From: Actinomycetota bacterium | Lineage (GTDB): Bacteria; Actinomycetota; UBA4738; HRBIN12 | NCBI GenBank assembly: GCA_026003015.1 | Contig: BPGL01000001.1 | Coordinates: 902,913 to 966,912 of the forward strand | DNA: 64,000 bases | Reading direction: 5' to 3' | Shown here: piece after piece, positions 5,928 to 64,000 of the stretch | Layout of the letters: each line of letters begins with the position of its first letter | Numbering within the stretch: the stretch's first letter is position 1 | The notes under the pieces: model-generated | The model's input: only the letters and a program-made list of their open reading frames with translations | Database searches by the model: none | Told to the model about the DNA's origin: nothing | Position numbers and translations under genes: made by a program

Positions 5928-7241
5928 ATGAGGGTCGAGCTCGTCCCCGTCCGAGGCGTGCCCGAGGTCCGCCCCGGCGACGACCTCGCGCGCCTGCTCG
6001 CCGAGGCACTCGGGCCGCTCGGCCCGACCGGCGGCGACGTGCTCGTCGTGACCCAGAAGGTCGTGTCGAAGGCCGAGGGACGGCTCGTGCCCGACCGCGA
6101 CCGGGCCTCGGTGGTGGCCGCGGAGACCCGACGCGTCGTCGCCCGTCGCGGGGAGCTCGTCATCGCCGAGACGCGCCACGGCTTCGTCTGCGCCAACGCG
6201 GGGGTCGACGCCTCCAACGTCGAACCGGGATGGCTGTCGCTCCTGCCCGAGGACCCCGACCGCTCGGCCGCCCTGCTGCGCGAGGCCCTCGCGGAGGCGC
6301 TGGGCGTCGAGCTCGGGGTGGTCGTGACCGACACGTTCGGCAGGCCCTGGCGTCGGGGCGTGGTCGAGGTGGCGATCGGCGTGGCCGGCCTCGCACCGCT
6401 CGTGGATCTGCGCGGCACGCACGACGCCTTCGGACGCGAACTCGAGGCGACCGTCGTGGCCCTCGCCGACGAGATCGCCGCGGCGAGCGGGCTCGTCGCG
6501 GGCAAGGCCGCGGGGATCCCCGCGGTGCTGGTGCGCGGCGCGCGCGAGCTCCCCGGGACCGGCGGCGCGCGCGAGCTCCCCGGGACCGGCGGCGCGCGCG
6601 AGCTCCTCCGTCCCGCGGCCGAAGACCTGTTCCGATCCTCTCCCCTCGAGGCGATCCACGCCCGCCGGACGATCCGCTCGTTCGGTCCCGGCGCGGTCGA
6701 TCCGGGGGCGATCGAAGAGGCGATCCGCGCGGCCGTCACCGCGCCCGCGCCCCACCACAGCCGCCCGTGGCGGTTCAGCGTCCTGACGAGCGCGCCGGCG
6801 AGGCGAACCCTGCTCGCCGCGATGGCCGAGGCGTGGCGAGAGGACCTACGGGCCGACGGGGTCGACGAGGCCACGATCGCCCGCCGGATCGCGCGCAGCG
6901 ACGCGGTGCTCGGCGCCGCGCCCGTCCTCATCGTGCCCTGGGTGAGCGCCGAGGCGGCGCACGCCTACCCCGACGAGGCTCGGCGTTGGGCCGAGCACGC
7001 GATGTTCCTGCTGTCGGGCGGGGCCTCGATCCAGAACCTGCTGCTCGCGCTCACCGCTCAGGGTCTCGCGTCGTGCTGGATCTCCTCGACGCTGTTCTGC
7101 CAGGAGGAGACGCGCGCCGCGCTCGGGGTCGACGAGCGGTTCATCGCGCTGGGGACGGTCGCGTGCGGACCGATGCCCCAGGAGCCGGCGACACGCCCCC
7201 GACCGCCCACGGACGTCGACGCGTTCGTCGACCGCCGGTAG
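5928..7241 (+). CDS. fbiB: F420-0:gamma-glutamyl ligase (CofE) fused to a C-terminal nitroreductase-like domain (FbiB)
   Basis: An N-terminal CofE domain (MRVELVPVRGVPEVRPGDDL...VVTQKVVSKAEGR) and a C-terminal NADH-oxidase/nitroreductase-like domain. The start is moved to the ATG at 5928, just after the fbiA stop; the track ORF starts upstream at 5877. Confidence 0.85.
   Translation: MRVELVPVRGVPEVRPGDDLARLLAEALGPLGPTGGDVLVVTQKVVSKAEGRLVPDRDRASVVAAETRRVVARRGELVIAETRHGFVCANAGVDASNVEPGWLSLLPEDPDRSAALLREALAEALGVELGVVVTDTFGRPWRRGVVEVAIGVAGLAPLVDLRGTHDAFGRELEATVVALADEIAAASGLVAGKAAGIPAVLVRGARELPGTGGARELPGTGGARELLRPAAEDLFRSSPLEAIHARRTIRSFGPGAVDPGAIEEAIRAAVTAPAPHHSRPWRFSVLTSAPARRTLLAAMAEAWREDLRADGVDEATIARRIARSDAVLGAAPVLIVPWVSAEAAHAYPDEARRWAEHAMFLLSGGASIQNLLLALTAQGLASCWISSTLFCQEETRAALGVDERFIALGTVACGPMPQEPATRPRPPTDVDAFVDRR
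6537..6610. repeat. 27-bp in-frame tandem repeat (about 2.6 copies) in the fbiB inter-domain linker, encoding GARELPGTG x2.6
   Basis: ggcgcgcgcgagctccccgggaccggc is repeated exactly at 6537 and 6564, with a partial third copy. Confidence 0.7.
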
Positions 7242-7301
7242 TGCGCCAGGCGTCCGGGTAAGCTCCGGGCTCGACAGCGCCGGAGCGAAGGGATCCGAGC
7301 C

Positions 7302-8048
7302 GTGAGCGACCGCCCACGTCCCACGAAGGCCGAACGCAGGGAGCAGGCGCGCCTCGAGCGCGAGGCGATCCAGGCGCGCCTCGAGCGACGGGCCCGGGCC
7401 CGTCGCATCGGAACGGCCCTCGTCCTCGTCGGTGTGCTCGTCGCCGTGGCCGCGATCGTGCTCCTTGCCCGAGGCGGTGGCACCGCCGAGGTGCCCGCCC
7501 CTCAAGCGCTGCTTCAGCAGGCCGACGAGGCGGCTCGGGCGGCAGCGTGCGAGGAGGTCCGCACCACCCCGCCCTACGGGGCGCAGGACCGCGACCACGT
7601 CGCGACGCTGCCGGACCTCGCCACGTACCCATCGACGCCGCCCGCCTCGGGCCCCCACGGCGATTTCACGCTGCCCGCCGGCGTCTACGACGCCCCACCG
7701 CCCCTCGACCAGGTCCTCCACTCGCTCGAGCACGGCGCGGCCGTCGTCTGGTACGACCCGGCGCTCGCGAACGAGGAGATCGACCGGATCGAGGCGTTCT
7801 TCTCGCAGCCGGTCGACCGGGTTGCAGCGAGCCAGGACCGCGTGATCGTCGCGCCCTACGACTACCCCGGGCAGGCGGGGCGTCTGCCCGACGGGGTCGG
7901 GATGGCGCTCGTCGCGTGGCACCGGATCCGGCTGTGCGGTGAGCCGAGCCTGGCGGCCGCCTTCGACTTCACCTCGCGCTTCGCGTTCCCCACGGCCCTG
8001 GACCGTCCCTACGAAGGCGAGGCGCCCGAGGCTGGGGTCCCGATCTGA
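7302..8048 (+). CDS. DUF3105-domain membrane-anchored protein
   Basis: An N-terminal basic region, one TM segment (IGTALVLVGVLVAVAAIVLL) and a C-terminal domain with the LEHGAAVVWYDP motif typical of DUF3105. Confidence 0.7.
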   Translation: MSDRPRPTKAERREQARLEREAIQARLERRARARRIGTALVLVGVLVAVAAIVLLARGGGTAEVPAPQALLQQADEAARAAACEEVRTTPPYGAQDRDHVATLPDLATYPSTPPASGPHGDFTLPAGVYDAPPPLDQVLHSLEHGAAVVWYDPALANEEIDRIEAFFSQPVDRVAASQDRVIVAPYDYPGQAGRLPDGVGMALVAWHRIRLCGEPSLAAAFDFTSRFAFPTALDRPYEGEAPEAGVPI

Positions 8049-8055
8049 GGTCCCG

Positions 8056-8829
8056 GTGACGAGCCGCAAGCGACGACGGTCGCGAGAGCGCCCCGGCGAC
8101 GCACGCGGGCAGGCGGACGCCCCGACCGCGCCCCGGTCGCGCGGTCGCGAGGGGACCGGCGGGACCGCGAGCGACCGGCGGGCGCGCAAGGAGCGAGCAC
8201 GCGAGGAGCGCCGGCGGGCCCGCCGCGCCGAGCGGTGGCGCAAGGCCGTGCGTCGGCTCGCCGCGGTCGCCGCCGTCGGCGCCGTCGTGGCCGGGACGCT
8301 GTGGTATCTCGGCCGGGCGGCCGGCCGCGACCCGATCCCCGCCGCAGCGGTCCGCGCGGCCGCCGAAGCGGGCTGCACGACACCGACCCGCCAGTTCGAC
8401 GAGCCCGAGCGTGGGCACCTGCCGCCCTCGCAGATCGTCTACCGCGAGCGGCCCGCCACCGCCGGAGCGCACGAGGCCGTCGCCCTCCCGGTGCCGCCGC
8501 ACGTCTACGACGCCCCCGTCCCCGAGACGCGAGCGGTGCACGCGCTCGAGCACGGCGCCGTGATCCTGTACTACCGCCCCGACGGGCCGGGCGCCCTCGC
8601 CCCCGACGTCGTCGAGCGCCTGCGCGCGATCGCCGAGGGGAGCCGCGCCAGCGTCCTCGCCCCCTACCCCGACCTGCCCGAGGGCGTCTCGTTCGCGCTC
8701 GCCGCGTGGAACCTGCTGCAGACCTGCCCCGCCGGGCTGGCGCCCGAGCAGGCCACGACGATCGCCGAGGGCTTCATCGCCTCGGCGGAGTGCAAGGGCC
8801 AGCCCGAGCCCGGCATCCCTCCCTGCTGA
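8056..8829 (+). CDS. DUF3105-domain membrane-anchored protein (tandem paralog)
   Basis: Same architecture: TM segment LAAVAAVGAVVAGTLWYL and the HALEHGAVILYYRPDGPG motif. I place the start at the GTG at 8056, after the upstream stop; the track ORF is over-extended upstream. Confidence 0.65.
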   Translation: MTSRKRRRSRERPGDARGQADAPTAPRSRGREGTGGTASDRRARKERAREERRRARRAERWRKAVRRLAAVAAVGAVVAGTLWYLGRAAGRDPIPAAAVRAAAEAGCTTPTRQFDEPERGHLPPSQIVYRERPATAGAHEAVALPVPPHVYDAPVPETRAVHALEHGAVILYYRPDGPGALAPDVVERLRAIAEGSRASVLAPYPDLPEGVSFALAAWNLLQTCPAGLAPEQATTIAEGFIASAECKGQPEPGIPPC

Positions 8830-57705: not shown

Positions 57706-58281
57706 CTACGACACGTCGGCCCGCGCGGGGGGCGTTCGCCCAGCGGCCGGCCCCAGGTGATCCTCGAGGGCCCGGAAGGGCTCCGGCCGGTGCCCGACGA
57801 GGAACGGGCGCCAGCCCTCCAACGCCCGGGCCGCGACGGGGTCCTGGTCGACGAGCCAGGCCAGGTGCCGGAGCGTGTGGCCGAGCACCTGGCCCGGATC
57901 GATCCGCTCGGGCGGCGAGGTCGCCTCGCCCACGGCCACGGGGGCGGCGTCGAGGGGCTCGAGCTCGACGGTCGGACTCGTCGGCGGGTCGACGACGGCC
58001 ACGTAGGTGAGCACCACCGACCCCTCGTCGAACCGCCAGGAGGTCGAGTGGACGAACCGCGGTCGAAGCCCGAGCGCCTCGACGAGGCCGACGACGCGCG
58101 CGTGGGGGTGCTCGTCGCCGCTGGGGACCCGGAGCTGCCCGTTCGGCCTCGGCGCCCGTGAAGCGCCGGGGGCCCCCCGCACCGGCTCGGCCCCCGGCGT
58201 CTCGGGCGGACGGATCCGGCGGATCCCCGCCTCGGTCGCGCACAGGAGCAGCACCTCGACGAGCACCTGCTGCAGGCTCAT
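57706..58281 (-). CDS. Hypothetical protein (191 aa)
   Basis: An ORF from the ATG at 58281 with consistent GC3 bias. No recognised domain. The track's 886-aa ORF on this strand is an over-extension. Confidence 0.35.
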   Translation of the reverse strand: MSLQQVLVEVLLLCATEAGIRRIRPPETPGAEPVRGAPGASRAPRPNGQLRVPSGDEHPHARVVGLVEALGLRPRFVHSTSWRFDEGSVVLTYVAVVDPPTSPTVELEPLDAAPVAVGEATSPPERIDPGQVLGHTLRHLAWLVDQDPVAARALEGWRPFLVGHRPEPFRALEDHLGPAAGRTPPARADVS

Positions 58282-58326
58282 GCAGATGCATGATACTGCA
58301 TCAGCTCCAAGCCGGCCCCGGGTACG

Positions 58327-58905
58327 ATGTGCTGCGTGGACGGTGCCGCCCCGCGCGCTCGGTGGCTCGCCCCGCTGATCGCCGCAGGGGTGCTGGCCGG
58401 CCACGCGCTCACCTACGCGATCGTCCGGCCCGACGCCCACGAGCGCGCCGCGGCCCTCGCGGCCAGCGGCCACGGGTACCTGGATCGGATCGCCCTGCCC
58501 CTGGCCGTCATCGCGATCGTCGCCCTGGCCGCGGCCGGCGTCCGCGGGCTGGCGGCGCCCTCGCGCGTCCCCACCCTGCTCGCGCGCTGCGTCGGCGCGC
58601 AGGTGGGGCTGTTCGGCGCGATGGAGGTCGTCGAGCGATGGCTCGCCGGCGCGCCACTCGCCGACCTCCTCCACGGCGACGTGCTCCTCGTCGGGCTCGT
58701 CGTCCAGATCGTCCTCGGCGCCGGGCTGGCCTGGCTGCTTCGCCGCCTGTTCGCACTCGGCGCCGAGCTCGCCGGGGCGCGACCGGTCACGCCGCCGCAG
58801 CCGGCGATCATCGCCCTGGGCGGGGCCCTCGCGCCGGCCCGTCGCACGGCCGCGGCGCTCGCCTGGCCGGGGCCGCGAGCCCCTCCACGGCGACCCGTCG
58901 CTTGA
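58327..58905 (+). CDS. Hypothetical integral membrane protein (about 4 TM)
   Basis: Hydrophobic helices (LAPLIAAGVLAGHALTYAIV, ALPLAVIAIVALAAAGV, VLLVGLVVQIVLGAGLAWLL). Divergent from the upstream gene across an AT-richer spacer. Confidence 0.35.
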   Translation: MCCVDGAAPRARWLAPLIAAGVLAGHALTYAIVRPDAHERAAALAASGHGYLDRIALPLAVIAIVALAAAGVRGLAAPSRVPTLLARCVGAQVGLFGAMEVVERWLAGAPLADLLHGDVLLVGLVVQIVLGAGLAWLLRRLFALGAELAGARPVTPPQPAIIALGGALAPARRTAAALAWPGPRAPPRRPVA

Positions 58906-58971: not shown

Positions 58972-59649
58972 ATGGGAACGATGCGACGCACCGTGTCCGC
59001 GCTCGCCGTCGCCGCGGGGCTCGTCGGGCTCCTCGGCGGCGCGCGTCCCGCGCTTGCCCACGAAGCCCACGCGATGGGCGACCTGGAGCTGGTGATCGGG
59101 TTCGGCACCGAGCCCGCCTACGCGGGGATGCCGAACAGTGTCCAGGTGCTCGTGCGTCACGACGGGGAGCCGGTCACGAACCTTCGGCCCGGCGACCTGC
59201 GGGTCGAGGTCACCTACGGCGACGCGACGAGCGAGTTCGAGCTCGAGCCGTTCTTCCGGGTCGGGGTCTTCGGTGAGCCCGGCGACTACCGCGCCTGGTT
59301 CGTCCCCTCTCAGCCCGGCGACTACACGTTCCACGTCATGGGGCGCGTCGAGGGCGAACGGGTCGACACGTCCGTCACCTCCGGGCCCGACACGTTCTCG
59401 CCGGTGATCGACCCCGTGGCCGAGGCGTTCCCACCCGTCCAGGCACCGACGAACGCCGAGCTCGCCGAGCGCCTCGAACGAGAGGCCTCGCGCAGCACAG
59501 AGGCGATCGCGCGGGCCAACGACGCCGCGGCCGCCGCGACGGACGCCGCGGCGAGCGCGCGCACCATCGGGGTCCTCGGCACGGCGCTCGGGGCCGCGGG
59601 CCTGGCGGTCGGCGGTGCGGCCCTGCTGCGACGCCGGACCGCCGGGTAG
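58972..59649 (+). CDS. YcnI-like (DUF1775-like) secreted copper-binding protein with a C-terminal membrane anchor
   Basis: Signal peptide ...GARPALA followed by a mature N-terminal His (HEAHAMGD), consistent with a His-brace. A C-terminal TM segment GVLGTALGAAGLAVGGAALL. Sits immediately upstream of copC-copD, as B. subtilis ycnI does with ycnJ. Confidence 0.5.
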   Translation: MGTMRRTVSALAVAAGLVGLLGGARPALAHEAHAMGDLELVIGFGTEPAYAGMPNSVQVLVRHDGEPVTNLRPGDLRVEVTYGDATSEFELEPFFRVGVFGEPGDYRAWFVPSQPGDYTFHVMGRVEGERVDTSVTSGPDTFSPVIDPVAEAFPPVQAPTNAELAERLEREASRSTEAIARANDAAAAATDAAASARTIGVLGTALGAAGLAVGGAALLRRRTAG

Positions 59650-59655
59650 TCGACC

Positions 59656-60231
59656 GTGCCGCGACCGCTCGCACTGCTCGCCCACGCGGGCGCGGCCGAC
59701 GAGTCGCTCGCGATGGCCATGGTCGTCGCGAGCCTGTGGATCGCCTGGGTGGGATGGTCGCGGCTGCGCGGGACCGGGTTCCCGCGTATTCCTCGGTGGA
59801 GCGCGGCCGCGCTGCTGGGCAGCGCGGCCGCGCTCCTCGTGGCGTCCGCGATCGTGCCGCGCGCCGTGCTCGGGCCCTCCACCCCCTCCCCCGCGGCCGG
59901 CCCCCGGCCGAGCTCGACCGCGACCCTGCGCGTCGTGGAGCCCGCGCCCGGTACGCTCGTTCGCGGCGATCGCCTCCGGGTCGTGCTCGCCCTCGAGGGC
60001 GGCCGGATCGTCGAGTCGGCCTCGACGGAGCTGCGGCCCGACACCGGGCACGTCCACGTCGTCGTCGACGGACGGATGGTCTCGATGACCTACGGAACCC
60101 TGCAGATCGTGGACCTCTCGGGCCTCACGCCGGGTCGCCACGAGCTCGAGGCCGAGTTCGTCGCCGCCGACCACGCACCCTTCGCCCCCCGCGTGCTCGC
60201 CCGGACCTGGTTCCGGTTGGAGGAAGGGTGA
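59656..60231 (+). CDS. Membrane/secreted protein with a conserved His-rich domain (GHVHVVVDG ... ADHAPF), tentatively DUF4399-like; paralog of 62168..62588
   Basis: N-terminal hydrophobic segments, then a domain sharing RVVEP-G-V-GD-L-V-L...RPD-GH-HV--D-----SM...G-H-L--EFVA-DHAPF-PRV with the downstream paralog. The GTG start follows the upstream TAG. Confidence 0.45.
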   Translation: MPRPLALLAHAGAADESLAMAMVVASLWIAWVGWSRLRGTGFPRIPRWSAAALLGSAAALLVASAIVPRAVLGPSTPSPAAGPRPSSTATLRVVEPAPGTLVRGDRLRVVLALEGGRIVESASTELRPDTGHVHVVVDGRMVSMTYGTLQIVDLSGLTPGRHELEAEFVAADHAPFAPRVLARTWFRLEEG

Positions 60232-62178
60232 ACGTGCGCCGCGCCCTTGGGGTCGTGCTCCCCGTGGCGGCGCTCGCCGTCCTCGTCCTCGCGCGGCCGG
60301 CCCTCGCCCACGCGGGGTTCCGCTCCTCCGATCCCGCCGACGGCGCGAGGCTCGAGCGGTCTCCAACGACGATCACCCTCACGTTCACCGAGGCCGTGGA
60401 CCCGAGCATCTCCACCGTCCGCCTCCTCGACGCCGCCGGCCGCGCCGTTGCGACGGGGTCGCCGGAGCAGCCGACGGCCGAGGTCCTCCGCCTGCCGCTG
60501 CCCGAGCCGCTGGCCCGCGGCAGCTACACCGTGACCTGGCTCGTCGTCTCTGCGGTCGATGGCCACGTGACCTCCGGGGCGATCGCGTTCGGCGTCGGTG
60601 TCGAGCCCGGTGAGGCCGCCGCGACCGCGACCCCCCCCGGCCCCGTCAACCGCGTCGCCCCTCGGGATCGGCGCGAGAACGCTCCTGCTCGTCGGCGTCG
60701 CCCTGTTGCTCGGGCTCGGCGCCGTCGGCGCACACGTCCTCGAGACGACGCCGGCCTCCCTTCGCCCCCTCGCCGTCGCCGCCGGGCTCGCGACGTTCGG
60801 CGGCGCGGCCCTCCTCGTCGCGGCCGAGGTCGCCCTGCTCGACCGGCCCGCCGTGGCCGTGTTGGCGTCGGAGCCCGGCGAGCGCCTCCTCCGCCTGCTG
60901 ATCGGCGCCGGCCTGGCCGCGGCGGTGGCCGTCGTCGCCGCGGCCAGGCCCCGGCGCGCCACGCTCACCGCGGCCGGCGCCGCCGGCGCGGTCGTCGCCG
61001 TCCTGCGCGCGGGCGCGGGCCACGCCGCCCCCGCGCCGGTGGACCAGGCGCTGCAGGCGGCGCACATCCTGGCGGTCGGCGGCTGGATCGGCGGGCTGGC
61101 CGTCCTGCTCGTGGCGTTGCGCGCCGGCGTGCCCGATCCGGTCCGAACGACCCGCCGGTTCTCGGCGACGGCCCTCGTCGCGGCGGCCGTCGTCGTGCTC
61201 ACCGGGACGCTGCGCGCCTGGTCGGAGACCGGCGGCCCCGCCGCGCTCGCCGAGACCGCGACCACGGCCTACGGACGCCTGCTCGGCCTGAAGGTCGTCG
61301 CCGCGCTGGCCCTGATCGCCCTGGGGGCGCGCAACCGTCGTCGGTCGCTCCCGGCCCTGGCCGCCGGCGACCCCGCGCCCCTCCGCCGCGTCGGGACGGC
61401 CGAGCTCTTGGTCGCCCTCGGCGTCTTCGCGCTCACCGGAGCCCTCACGTCGGTCCCCCCTCGTCCCACCGACGCGGTGCCCGTGCGGCCCCCCGCGATC
61501 CGCGCGGAGGGCCTGGACTTCGCCACCACGGTCCGAGCCTCGCTCAGCGTCACCCCGGGGCTGCCCGGCTCCAACGTCTTCGCGCTCGAGCTCATCGACC
61601 CCGACCGCGGGGACCCCGTGAACGCCGACGAGGTGTCGCTCACGCTCGAGCCGGTCGCCGGCGGGGTTCCGGCCCAGCGGGTCGAGCTGCGCCCGTCGGG
61701 GACGGCCTGGCGTGCCGAGAGCTCGGCCCTGGCGATCGCCGGCACGTGGCGGGCGACCGTTCGGGTCGTGCGGGGGTCCCAGGCGGTCGAGGTGCCGCTC
61801 GTCGTCACGACCCGCGTCGACGGCGCGCGCTCGAGCGTCGTCGAGGCCCCCGGGCAGCTGGCGATCACGACGATCGCCTACCGCGACGGCACATCCGCTC
61901 AGCTCTACCTGGACCCGGGCGATCCCGGCCCGAACCAGCTGCACGCCACCGTGTTCGACGCCGCCGGCGAGGAGCTCCAGATCCTCCACCCCACCCTCGT
62001 CGTCGTCGCCCCGGACGGCTCCGCAGCGCGGGCGGATCTCCTACGCTTCGGGCCGGGGCACGTCGTGGCGGAGCTCGACCTGGAGCCGGGGATGTGGGTG
62101 TTCGACCTCACCGGATCGACGCCGGGGGGCGGATCGGTGCAGGCGACCCTGCGCGCGCGAGTGGAGCCCGCGCCGTGA
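60228..62178 (+). CDS. CopC-CopD fusion copper transport protein with a C-terminal YtkA/Ig-like domain (YcnJ-like), with a frameshift in a C8 homopolymer (60631-60638)
   Basis: CopC domain in frame 0: signal peptide then AHAGFRSSDPADGARLERSPTTITLTFTEAVD...SYTVTWLVVSAVDGHVTSGAIAFGV. The CopD TM domain and C-terminal beta domains are in frame +1, starting at 60598. The junction is at cccccccc. Confidence 0.75.
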
Positions 62179-62588
62179 GGCGGCTGCTTCCGGTCGCGCT
62201 CTCGATCGCCCTGGCGGCCGTGGCGTGCGGAGGCGAGCCGTCCCCCCCGGGACCCGGCGCGCCGTCGCCGCGGCCCTCGACCCGGGCCCTCCTTCGGATC
62301 GAGGAGCCCCGCAACGGGGAGGTGATCCGCGGCGATCGCGTCCGGATCGTGCTGTCGCTGTCGGGGGCGCGGCTGGCCGAGACGGCGAGGACCGAGGTGC
62401 GGCCCGACGAGGGCCACCTCCACGTGATGCTCGACGACCGGCTGCTGTCGATGACCGGGCGGCTCGAGCAGGTGATCCGCGACGTCGAGCCCGGCGAGCA
62501 CCTGCTGCGGGTGGAGTTCGTCGCCAACGACCACGCGCCCTTCGACCCGCGCGTGATCCAGGCGGTGACCTTCGAGGTCCGACGGTGA
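62168..62588 (+). CDS. Putative lipoprotein with the same His-rich domain (GHLHVMLDD ... NDHAPFDPRV), tentatively DUF4399-like
   Basis: The GTG at 62168 overlaps the copD stop. Signal peptide with Cys (IALAAVACGG). The domain is clearly paralogous to 59656..60231. Confidence 0.5.
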
Positions 62589-63184
62589 GCCGACGGGCCC
62601 CAGCACCACCGACGTCGGCGCCGGAGGCGGCGGGCGGTCGTGGGTCGGCGGCGGCCCCGGGCGGGGCGTCCCTGTCCGTCGTCGCGCTCGGCGCCGCGCT
62701 CCTCGCGGTCCGACCCTGGATCCCGGGGAGCGTCGCGGGCGCCGCGCTCCCGATCGCGCTCGTGGTCGCCGGACTGCTCGCCCCGGCGCCGACGGCCTCG
62801 TCGAGGCCGGCCCCCCTCGGTCGCGCGCCGGTCCTCCTCGTCGGGCTCGCCGGCCTCGGCGCGGCGAGCCTGGTCGCCGGCGCCGCGCCGCCCCTGCACA
62901 CCTCGACCTGGACCCTGCCGCTCGCCCTGGTCGCCGCCGTCGGCGAGGAGGCGCTGTTCCGCCGGCACCTGTTCGGCGTGCTCGAGCGCGTCGGCGCGTT
63001 CGCGGCGATCGGCGGCGCGGCGGTCGCCTTCGCGATCGTGCACCTCCCCTCGTACGGACCGGCGGCGCTGCCGATCGACCTCGGCGCCGGGCTCGTGTTC
63101 GGCTGGCAGCGGTGGGCGAGCGGTGACTGGCGGGTCGCCGCCGCGACCCACGCGCTCGCGAACCTCGCCGCGCTCGTCCGATGA
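62585..63184 (+). CDS. CPBP-family (CAAX/Abi) intramembrane metalloprotease
   Basis: EEALFRRHLFG (EExxxR), FAIVHL (FxxxH) and HALANL (HxxxN) motifs in TM helices. The GTGA overlap with the upstream gene confirms the start. Confidence 0.7.
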   Translation: MSRRAPAPPTSAPEAAGGRGSAAAPGGASLSVVALGAALLAVRPWIPGSVAGAALPIALVVAGLLAPAPTASSRPAPLGRAPVLLVGLAGLGAASLVAGAAPPLHTSTWTLPLALVAAVGEEALFRRHLFGVLERVGAFAAIGGAAVAFAIVHLPSYGPAALPIDLGAGLVFGWQRWASGDWRVAAATHALANLAALVR

Positions 63185-64000
63185 CCCGTCGTACGGCCCT
63201 CGCGCTCGCGCTCCTGGTCGCGGCGACCGCCTGCACGCGGGTCGGCGAGCCGACACCCCTGCGCGTCGGCGCCCTGTACCCCCTGTCGGGGAGCCAGGGG
63301 CCGGGGGGGATCGACGAGCACCGGGGGGTGCTGCTCGCCGCGGAGCTTGCGGGTGGACAACCGAGGGGCGTCGGGCCGATCGAGGTCGTCTCGATCGACG
63401 TGCCGGCGGCCGACGCTGCGCCGGGCGCGGTCGCCGCTTTGGACGAGGCGGGCGTCGACCTCGTCGTCGGCTCCTACGGCAGCACGATCTCCGCGGTGAT
63501 CGCACGGGCCACGGCGGCGCGCGGGCTGCTGTTCTGGGAGACGGGGGCGGTGGGGATGCTCCCGCCCGGCGTGGCCCGAGGCGAGCTCACGTTCCGGATG
63601 GCACCGACCGGCGCGGTCCTCGGACGCAACGCGATCGCCTTCGTGGCCGAGCGGCTCGCGGGCGAGCTCGGCCGCTCCCCGTCGTCGCTGCGCTTCGGAG
63701 TCGCCTTCGTCCGCGACGCCTACGGACGAGCGGTCGCGCGCGGCGCCCTCGCGGAGATCCGGGAGCGCGGCCTCCACCTGGTGGGGCGCTTCGGGTACGA
63801 CGCCCTCAACACGCACTGGCGGGCCTTCGCCAGGCGGATCGAGCGCGCCGGCGTCGAGGTGCTGTTCGTGAGCGCCTACCTCGAGGACGGCATCGCGATG
63901 CGTCGCGCGATCGTGCGCGAGGACGTGCCCCTCGTCGCGAGCATCGGCACCTCCTCGAGCTACTGCATGCCCGAGTTCGGCGCGGCGCTCGGCCCCGACG
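63181..64000 (+). CDS. ABC transporter substrate-binding protein (type I periplasmic binding fold, Liv-like), partial at the right edge
   Basis: ATGA overlap at the start. Signal/lipoprotein-like N-terminus (LLVAATACT) and an LRVGALYPLSGSQGPGG...VVGSYGST PBP1 pattern. The ORF runs off the window. Confidence 0.7.
   Translation, partial: MTRRTALALALLVAATACTRVGEPTPLRVGALYPLSGSQGPGGIDEHRGVLLAAELAGGQPRGVGPIEVVSIDVPAADAAPGAVAALDEAGVDLVVGSYGSTISAVIARATAARGLLFWETGAVGMLPPGVARGELTFRMAPTGAVLGRNAIAFVAERLAGELGRSPSSLRFGVAFVRDAYGRAVARGALAEIRERGLHLVGRFGYDALNTHWRAFARRIERAGVEVLFVSAYLEDGIAMRRAIVREDVPLVASIGTSSSYCMPEFGAALGPD

Follow-up and report, generated by a model that had tools for sequence, protein, structure and literature searches.

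A predicted copper-import operon of an uncultured actinobacterium that combines a CopC-CopD fusion with an undescribed family of membrane-tethered proteins

Introduction

In bacteria, the capture and import of copper are far less understood than its export. The closest described system is the ycnKJI operon of Bacillus subtilis, in which YcnJ is a CopC-CopD-YtkA importer and YcnI a Cu(II) protein of the DUF1775 family. The hand-off of Cu(II) between the two, described only from 2021 to 2026, proceeds via N-terminal histidines on membrane-tethered domains (PMC12362106, PMC8424229); H24 in the CopC domain and H295 in the CopD domain of YcnJ are required for growth of B. subtilis under copper limitation, and CtaK, a factor of CuA assembly, is a relative of the YtkA domain (PMC13344008). 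A further uptake unit is found in the AZY operon of Escherichia coli, comprising YobA (CopC), YebZ (CopD) and the small extracytoplasmic accessory protein YebY (DUF2511) (PMC8689200). Here, we are discussing an operon that invites comparison with these systems, located near the end of a stretch of 64,000 nucleotides (nt) of an uncultured actinobacterium of the lineage HRBIN12 (GenBank assembly GCA_026003015.1, contig BPGL01000001.1, positions 902,913 to 966,912 of the forward strand), hereafter "the window". Its central gene encodes a fused CopC-CopD protein, which is accompanied by a protein, G1, of an undescribed family.

We consider it reasonably likely that this operon serves the extracytoplasmic capture and the import of Cu(II) in an uncultured, high-GC (guanine plus cytosine) soil actinobacterium. 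Most plausibly, it would work like the YcnJ/YcnI and AZY systems. It differs from them in that the partner family is not homologous and that two DUF4399-like proteins, a protease and a conserved membrane protein take part. With ycnKJI, it has in common the fused CopC-CopD importer with one or more extra C-terminal immunoglobulin (Ig)-like domains, including a predicted Cu(II)-only CopC site and a conserved CopD histidine as in YcnJ, as well as an extracytoplasmic protein that is encoded beside the importer. However, a YcnK-type repressor gene is lacking from the operon, G1 precedes the importer while YcnI follows YcnJ, and the genes of G0, G2, G4, a CPBP protease, a solute-binding protein and P259 are additional. 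With AZY, the operon shares the combination of a CopC and CopD uptake unit with a small extracytoplasmic accessory protein, whereas the AZY CopC and CopD genes are separate and the accessory proteins belong to unrelated families. The first-pass annotation of the window had placed here a copper-handling operon with a CopC-CopD-YtkA gene, mirroring B. subtilis ycnI-ycnJ; the YcnJ-like part of this picture stands, while the homology to ycnI does not.

The core of the operon and its CopC-CopD importer

The region has a GC content of about 75% and carries a tight row of genes on the + strand. Its core consists of the following features:

58327-58905, + strand: G0, a membrane protein of 192 amino acids (aa), the first gene of the operon, assigned from its open reading frame (ORF) and synteny
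58972-59649, + strand: G1, 225 aa, with signal peptide, beta-sandwich ectodomain (residues 30-150), stalk helix and C-terminal anchor
59656-60231, + strand: G2, 191 aa, with two-helix anchor and DUF4399-like domain
60228-62178, + strand: the YcnJ-like CopC-CopD-(FixH/YtkA-like) fusion (CopCD), 649 aa after repair, frameshifted in the window
60631-60638, + strand: C8 homopolymer, site of the frame switch between the CopC and CopD parts

In the fusion, the N-terminal domain matches CopC (PF04234) with 82-84 bits against a Pfam cutoff of 23.3, and the membrane part matches CopD (PF05425) with 67 bits against 32.1. In 53 homologues, the CopC site residues H28, E55, D111 and H113 (H1, E28, D84 and H86 of the mature protein) are invariant, as are H265, H279 and W286 of the CopD part; this conservation bears out the earlier view of a copper-handling operon around a YcnJ-like protein. 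By its H, D, H ligand set and the lack of a Met cluster, the CopC domain is of the predicted Cu(II)-only type, and an invariant CopD histidine would be the equivalent of H295 of YcnJ. Different from the YtkA domain of YcnJ, the C-terminal domains of the fusion yielded only a sub-threshold match to FixH (19.2-19.9 bits against a cutoff of 23); among the homologues, one carries "faint" precomputed YtkA and FixH matches. Hence, in the earlier designation as an intact CopC-CopD-YtkA gene, CopC and CopD are confirmed, while the YtkA label and, in the window, the single reading frame are not.

In the window, the reading frame is 0 for the CopC part and 1 for the CopD part, and the switch maps to the C8 run. 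A contig from a different sequencing run (L008) matches 7804 bp of the window with 0 mismatches and one gap; it has C7 at the tract and a single ORF of 649 aa. C7 is also present in L010 (99.6% identity), the fusion ORF is intact in L008, L010, L002 and L003, and more distant relatives have one ORF of about 650 aa. Since near-identical contigs carry C7 together with an intact ORF, the frame break probably stems from an assembly error at this homopolymer; less probably, it is a genuine variant of the strain. Programmed frameshifting at the C tract is rejected on the same grounds. Similar frame breaks, in various genes, occur in loci of the same lineage from long-read metagenome-assembled genomes (MAGs; L016, L017, L059, L076, L077), suggesting indel errors in such assemblies. 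Taken at face value, the C8 tract predicts a product of CopC, junk and G4. The corresponding 950-aa ORF (59736-62588, + strand) is rejected as a gene, as it connects the frames of CopC and G4 by passing through the CopD region out of frame; its lack of stop codons is due to chance in DNA of 75% GC.

A variation of the importer is seen in a metagenome locus (L113, 5536-8346), where a 937-aa CopC-CopD protein with a C-terminal cytochrome c domain (Cytochrome_CBB3, 45 bits) is encoded beside a distant G1 relative. This fusion hints at a redox step that may be coupled to CopD transport.

G1, a separate family linked to the importer

A profile of the G1 ectodomain, searched against 1.84 billion cluster representatives, retrieved 1600 clusters (50% identity) at E ≤ 1e-3 and 914 at E ≤ 1e-10. 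Among the 150 clusters listed, nearly all measure about 200-250 aa, and their domain begins close to residue 26; distant members are without a Pfam domain. The genomic context was surveyed in 80 genome loci, all of them from uncultured Actinomycetota MAGs, in which CopCD follows G1 wherever sequence is available, and in 80 further loci (L098-L177; 45-69% GC) from a metagenome scan seeded with distant G1 members. Given its occurrence on contigs of 45-69% GC, the family reaches far beyond the 75% GC composition of the window. In the 55 metagenome loci with at least 800 nt of sequence after G1, CopC-CopD was counted when located within 1.5 kb downstream on the same strand; this was the case in 53 loci, 36 of which have it directly after G1 and 17 of which have a G2-like gene in between. 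Usually, the 45-69% GC loci present a bare two-gene unit of G1 and CopCD, sometimes with the G2-like gene in between, and their other neighbours are unrelated (FtsX permease, Rex, a CDF transporter, RibD, ornithine cyclodeaminase). For the closest YcnI relatives, a linkage of about 40% has been reported (PMC8424229), so that the linkage of G1 is the tighter one. No other evidence speaks as strongly for G1 and the importer working together.

The first-pass annotation had regarded G1 as YcnI-like. In Pfam and NCBIfam, however, no match of G1 to DUF1775 (PF07987) was found at E ≤ 1 and none to CopC, the best match being Filamin with 19 bits. A profile search of the G1 alignment against all sequences of the Protein Data Bank (PDB) returned only chance matches to coiled coils and PsaF helices, and that of G2 gave the same picture. 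With hhalign, the probability of a relationship between G1 and the operon's own CopC domains was 0.2%, and against a DUF1775 sequence (scoring 70 bits to PF07987) only the membrane anchor was aligned. YcnI was also missing from the best 50-60 structural matches of G1 in two fold-search lists. The YcnI label, thus, has to be given up: G1 is a separate, undescribed family, which resembles YcnI as an analogue, by its architecture and genomic surroundings, and is no homologue of it. Concerning the other families named for this operon, profile searches matched CopC, CopD and Rce1-like/CPBP, while DUF4399 and FixH (the latter for YtkA) stayed below cutoff.

The AlphaFold model of G1 (pLDDT 87.5) comprises a beta-sandwich (residues 30-136) and a long helix (161-224) with a terminal membrane segment; hydropathy places the C-terminal helix at 201-219, followed by an RRR tail. 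At this end of G1, the conserved motif DDASSA(R/K)T stands before the helix and the RR tail. The best structural match is CrdA of Helicobacter pylori (Foldseek E 1e-4, TM-score 0.69), a member of the CopC family (PMC9182242). With this family (CrdA, PDB 9ll2/9ll4; Methylosinus CopC, 5icu), G1 shares the fold only. Sequence and profile similarity are lacking (no Pfam match and the hhalign result above), a D-x-H motif providing the second ligand is conserved neither in close nor in distant G1 members, there is no Met-rich loop, and G1 possesses a stalk and a membrane anchor.

The signal peptide of G1 ends with Ala-x-Ala followed by His, and A29-H30 varies neither among 30 close homologues nor in distant ones; therefore, mature G1 should begin with His30, with cleavage being predicted. 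Together with the signal peptide, the C-terminal helix anchor and the location next to the importer, this predicted N-terminal His makes up the likeness to YcnI. Invariant polar residues across distant members are His30, Glu47, Asn55, Asp132 and Ser137. In comparison with the Glu and Trp of the mono-histidine brace of YcnI, E47 is invariant in G1, while W109 varies across the family. Some distant G1 relatives (P0394, P0370, P0380) have His/Glu-rich low-complexity inserts, such as HAEGEEHQEEGEEHHEEGEEH, in an ectodomain loop. Inserts of this kind are typical of metal-binding proteins.

G2, G4 and the accessory module

Downstream of the importer gene, the row continues with the following features:

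62175-62588, + strand: G4, a lipoprotein of 137 aa with the lipobox AAVAC and a DUF4399-like domain
62585-63184, + strand: CPBP (Rce1-like) glutamic intramembrane protease (G5), 199 aa, assigned from Pfam and motifs
63181-64000, + strand: Peripla_BP_6 solute-binding lipoprotein, running past the window end (413 aa in L008, at 6984-8225)
L008 8222-9001, just past the window end: P259, 259 aa

Originally, five co-directional genes at 58972-63184 were thought to be linked throughout by stop/start overlaps. The five genes, from G1 to CPBP, are confirmed, and GTGA overlaps exist at G2/CopCD (60228), CopCD/G4 (62175) and G4/CPBP (62585), but one of the four junctions, G1/G2, has a gap of 6 nt and no overlap. 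Likewise, the unit is longer on both sides than had been supposed, with G0 upstream, separated from G1 by 66 nt that hold the ribosome-binding site GGAAGGAG, and the Peripla_BP_6 lipoprotein downstream, the start of which forms an ATGA overlap with the stop of the CPBP gene at 63181. The binding-protein gene is, thus, translationally coupled to the CPBP gene; genes for a permease or an ATPase of an ATP-binding cassette (ABC) transporter are not present nearby.

The domains of G2 and G4 are 52% identical over 101 aa (E 5e-35) and have the motifs G-H-x-H-x-x-x-D, S-M, H, E and D-H-x-P-F in common, in which H-x-H, D, H, E and D-H are invariant, in agreement with the earlier proposal that the two small His-rich proteins are paralogues sharing GH(V/L)H...DHAPF. 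In G2, GHxHxxxD, H162, E167 and DHxPF are carried by an extracytoplasmic beta-sandwich (model pLDDT 90). Two membrane helices are joined by an Arg-rich loop, for which reason both the N-terminal tail and the domain are predicted to face outward. The conserved tail, LAHAGAxDES, and the two-helix anchor are specific to the G2 group. A role of the G2 N-terminus as an amino-terminal Cu(II)- and Ni(II)-binding (ATCUN) or His-brace site was rejected unless the tail is processed, since the distance of the His from the start codon varies (4-10 or more residues). G4 would be held by a lipid anchor, the lipobox being present in 27 of 30 homologues.

The assignment of these domains to a known family is weak. 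DUF4399 (PF14347) scores 24.1 bits on G2 and 23.0 bits on G4 against a cutoff of 28; it is found at E ≤ 1e-3 in 27 of 31 G2 homologues, all near or below the Pfam cutoff, some of which carry it as a precomputed domain. The DUF4399 label, put forward tentatively in the first-pass annotation, hence holds weakly. DUF6130 (PF19625) exceeds its cutoff on G2 by 0.6 bits and passes in one of the 31 homologues. For both families, searches of PDB sequences and of the literature yielded neither a solved structure nor a functional study. The conserved His, Asp and Glu residues together with the gene context suggest that G2 and G4 may bind metal.

The composition of the operon was counted in the 53 genome loci with enough flanking sequence. 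About 37 of these (~70%) show the arrangement G0-G1-G2-CopCD-G4-CPBP-(binding protein)-P259, about 12 end after CopCD while keeping G0-G1-G2-CopCD, and a few distant ones have G1-CopCD only. In two loci (L045, L051), the block of G4, CPBP, binding protein and P259 is inverted upstream, and four metagenome loci (L140, L144, L171, L174) have a G4-like and a P259-like gene after CopCD without CPBP. These counts place G1-CopCD first in the order of conservation, then G0, G2, G4 and P259, and finally CPBP and the binding protein. On this basis, G0-G1-G2-CopCD is the core of the operon, and G4, CPBP, the binding protein and P259 form an accessory module.

The CPBP label of the module's protease is supported by a Pfam score of 49.2 bits for PF02517 (cutoff 22.4) and by the catalytic motifs EExxFR (EExxxR in the family), FxxxH and HxxxN, which are conserved in 39 homologues. 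The protein is small (199 aa) compared with the CPBP/Rce1-like family and does not reach the cutoff of any NCBIfam subfamily, scoring 31.9 bits for MrtJ (cutoff 75) and 26.2 bits for MrtS (cutoff 130). Members of the family have varying roles, including lipoprotein N-acylation by LnsB (PMC7387801); because its catalytic motifs are kept, the protein of this operon is, unlike LnsB, probably an active protease. The earlier statement that a co-operonic protease is not part of described CopCD systems is in line with our literature search, which found no CPBP tied to such a system.

At both ends of P259 there are membrane helices, the C-terminal one being followed by a basic tail; a Pro/Ser/Thr linker and the conserved motif LSPLARRPLLDGL..PYRWV.PPP are further features, and Pfam gave no match. 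Its gene is found together with that of G4 and is located directly after it, without CPBP or binding protein, in some lineages.

G0 and the upstream region

G0 has about 3-4 hydrophobic helices according to hydropathy and no match in Pfam or NCBIfam. Its sequence is poorly conserved, yet it is syntenic in L001, L002, L008 and most of the 80 genome loci, and alignments reveal the conserved residues H26, Y30, G48-H49-x-Y51, E100 and E103-R104. Upstream of it, one further feature was read from the sequence:

58323-58328, + strand: TACGAT, a candidate -10 element

In many related loci, a TACAAT, TACGAT or TAGCAT element is located 6-8 nt 5' of the start of the G0 homologue. In the window, a GTG at 58336 stands downstream of TACGAT and shares its frame with ATG at 58327. 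The recurrent spacing of a -10-like element suggests a leaderless G0 mRNA, which would start at GTG 58336. A generic scan of the window for sigma-70 promoters and terminators yielded nothing.

Between G0 and the 3-hydroxyacyl-CoA dehydrogenase gene, the window has a divergent gene (57706-58281, - strand) for a 191-aa protein without Pfam match, which is found only in contigs of this strain (L004, L005, L008); in L002 and most loci of the genome survey, the dehydrogenase gene is directly 5' of G0. The gap of 45 nt between the divergent gene and G0 contains an AT-rich perfect inverted repeat, GATGCA-N6-TGCATC (58284-58301). It could be an operator for the 191-aa gene or for G0; as a copper operator it was rejected, since it is not seen 5' of G0 in other loci.

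Proposed function and alternative explanations

In the proposed mechanism, the importer would present an outward CopC domain with a high-affinity Cu(II) site, followed by a CopD part with two invariant histidines and by two C-terminal Ig-like domains related to FixH/YtkA. G1, with its predicted CopC/CrdA/P19-type beta-sandwich, would be held above the membrane by the stalk helix and the C-terminal anchor and, by analogy to YcnI and YcnJ, would bind Cu(II) at its N-terminal His, probably with Glu47 and/or Asp132. Cu(II) would be exchanged between G1 and the CopC domain, pass on to CopD and be imported. G2 with its two-helix anchor and G4 with its lipid anchor would probably be further metal-binding stations on the same face of the membrane, and G0 may be a conserved membrane partner.

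Several points weigh against this assignment. By sequence, G1 resembles neither CopC nor DUF1775, and structural matches of Ig-like folds extend to many proteins that are not related; for the G2 domain, the structural matches are generic FN3/Ig folds only. Within the lineage, gene order is weak evidence, because synteny extends to the flanking housekeeping genes (3-hydroxyacyl-CoA dehydrogenase, M23 peptidase). Searches of the window found no copper-responsive regulator, no recognisable copper operator and, including an Rfam scan, no riboswitch. Finally, we infer the direction of transport, since CopCD genes also occur in copper-resistance operons.

This last point leads to the alternative that the system handles excess copper, with G1, G2 and G4 buffering it outside the cell like CopC or CrdA in resistance operons. 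CopC and CopD were first described in the cop resistance operon of Pseudomonas, CrdA, the best structural match of G1, is a copper-resistance determinant (PMC9182242), and the 2025 model of YcnI also proposes a sequestration that limits copper entry. We nevertheless judge it unlikely: the operon is devoid of CopA/CopB, a P-type ATPase, a multicopper oxidase and a Met-rich Cu(I) site, the CopC domain appears to be of the Cu(II)-only type, CopCD by itself increases the uptake of copper, and YcnJ sustains growth when copper is limiting. It is very improbable that the extra proteins serve another metal, such as iron via a P19/FtrA-like route, zinc or nickel, leaving copper to the CopC domain. An Ftr1-type permease is not present, the near-obligate partner of G1 is CopC-CopD, and an N-terminal His is a hallmark of the Cu(II) sites in CopC, YcnI, lytic polysaccharide monooxygenases and PmoF. 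Uptake of Cu(II), hence, remains the reading we prefer for the core of the operon.

For the accessory module, it is quite possible, if short of an even chance, that G4, CPBP, the binding protein and P259 are a separate envelope module that is merely co-transcribed, in which CPBP serves the maturation or modification of lipoproteins or membrane-tethered proteins without being specifically involved in the handling of copper. The module is dispensed with in the roughly one dozen loci that keep the core, it is found inverted elsewhere, and G4-like and P259-like genes also accompany CopCD without CPBP; moreover, the CPBP gene is flanked by two lipoprotein genes, and the roles within its family, as exemplified by LnsB, are diverse. 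On the other hand, G4 is a paralogue of G2 and is encoded directly after CopCD, tying the module to the core, overlaps of 4 nt join CopCD, G4, CPBP and the binding protein, and the catalytic motifs lost in LnsB are kept. That CPBP would be a dedicated sorting or release protease for the C-terminal anchor of G1 or P259, in the manner of MrtJ, MrtS or myxosortase, is improbable. The weak MrtJ and MrtS matches and the C-terminal ends of G1 (motif, helix and RR tail) and of P259 (helix and basic tail) are in its favour, but the scores are far under the cutoffs. A comparison of G1 tails from loci with and without CPBP and of the region before the P259 helix gave no correlate of a CPBP substrate: the G1 tail motif is equally conserved in both sets of loci, which leaves cleavage of the G1 anchor without support, and action on P259 was rejected as no conserved motif precedes its helix.

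Implications for bacterial copper uptake

Taken together, the observations allow a wider proposal, which we put forward tentatively and regard as rather doubtful in its entirety. G1 would be a third, independently evolved class of Cu(II) proteins with an N-terminal His, after CopC and DUF1775/YcnI, and in many uncultured bacteria of soils it would act as the dedicated donor or buffer of fused CopC-CopD importers; DUF4399 would be a new His-rich extracytoplasmic copper-binding module; three or four different tethered copper stations would be arranged on one membrane face; and CPBP might control tethering.

In comparison with described CopCD systems, the conserved membrane protein G0 and the protease are new, and the locus gives DUF4399-type domains their first functional context. 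The main new element of the operon is the G1 family, a testable candidate for a new variant of a copper-binding fold. With an unannotated family in the position of YcnI beside CopCD, the role of partner to this type of importer appears to have evolved more than once.

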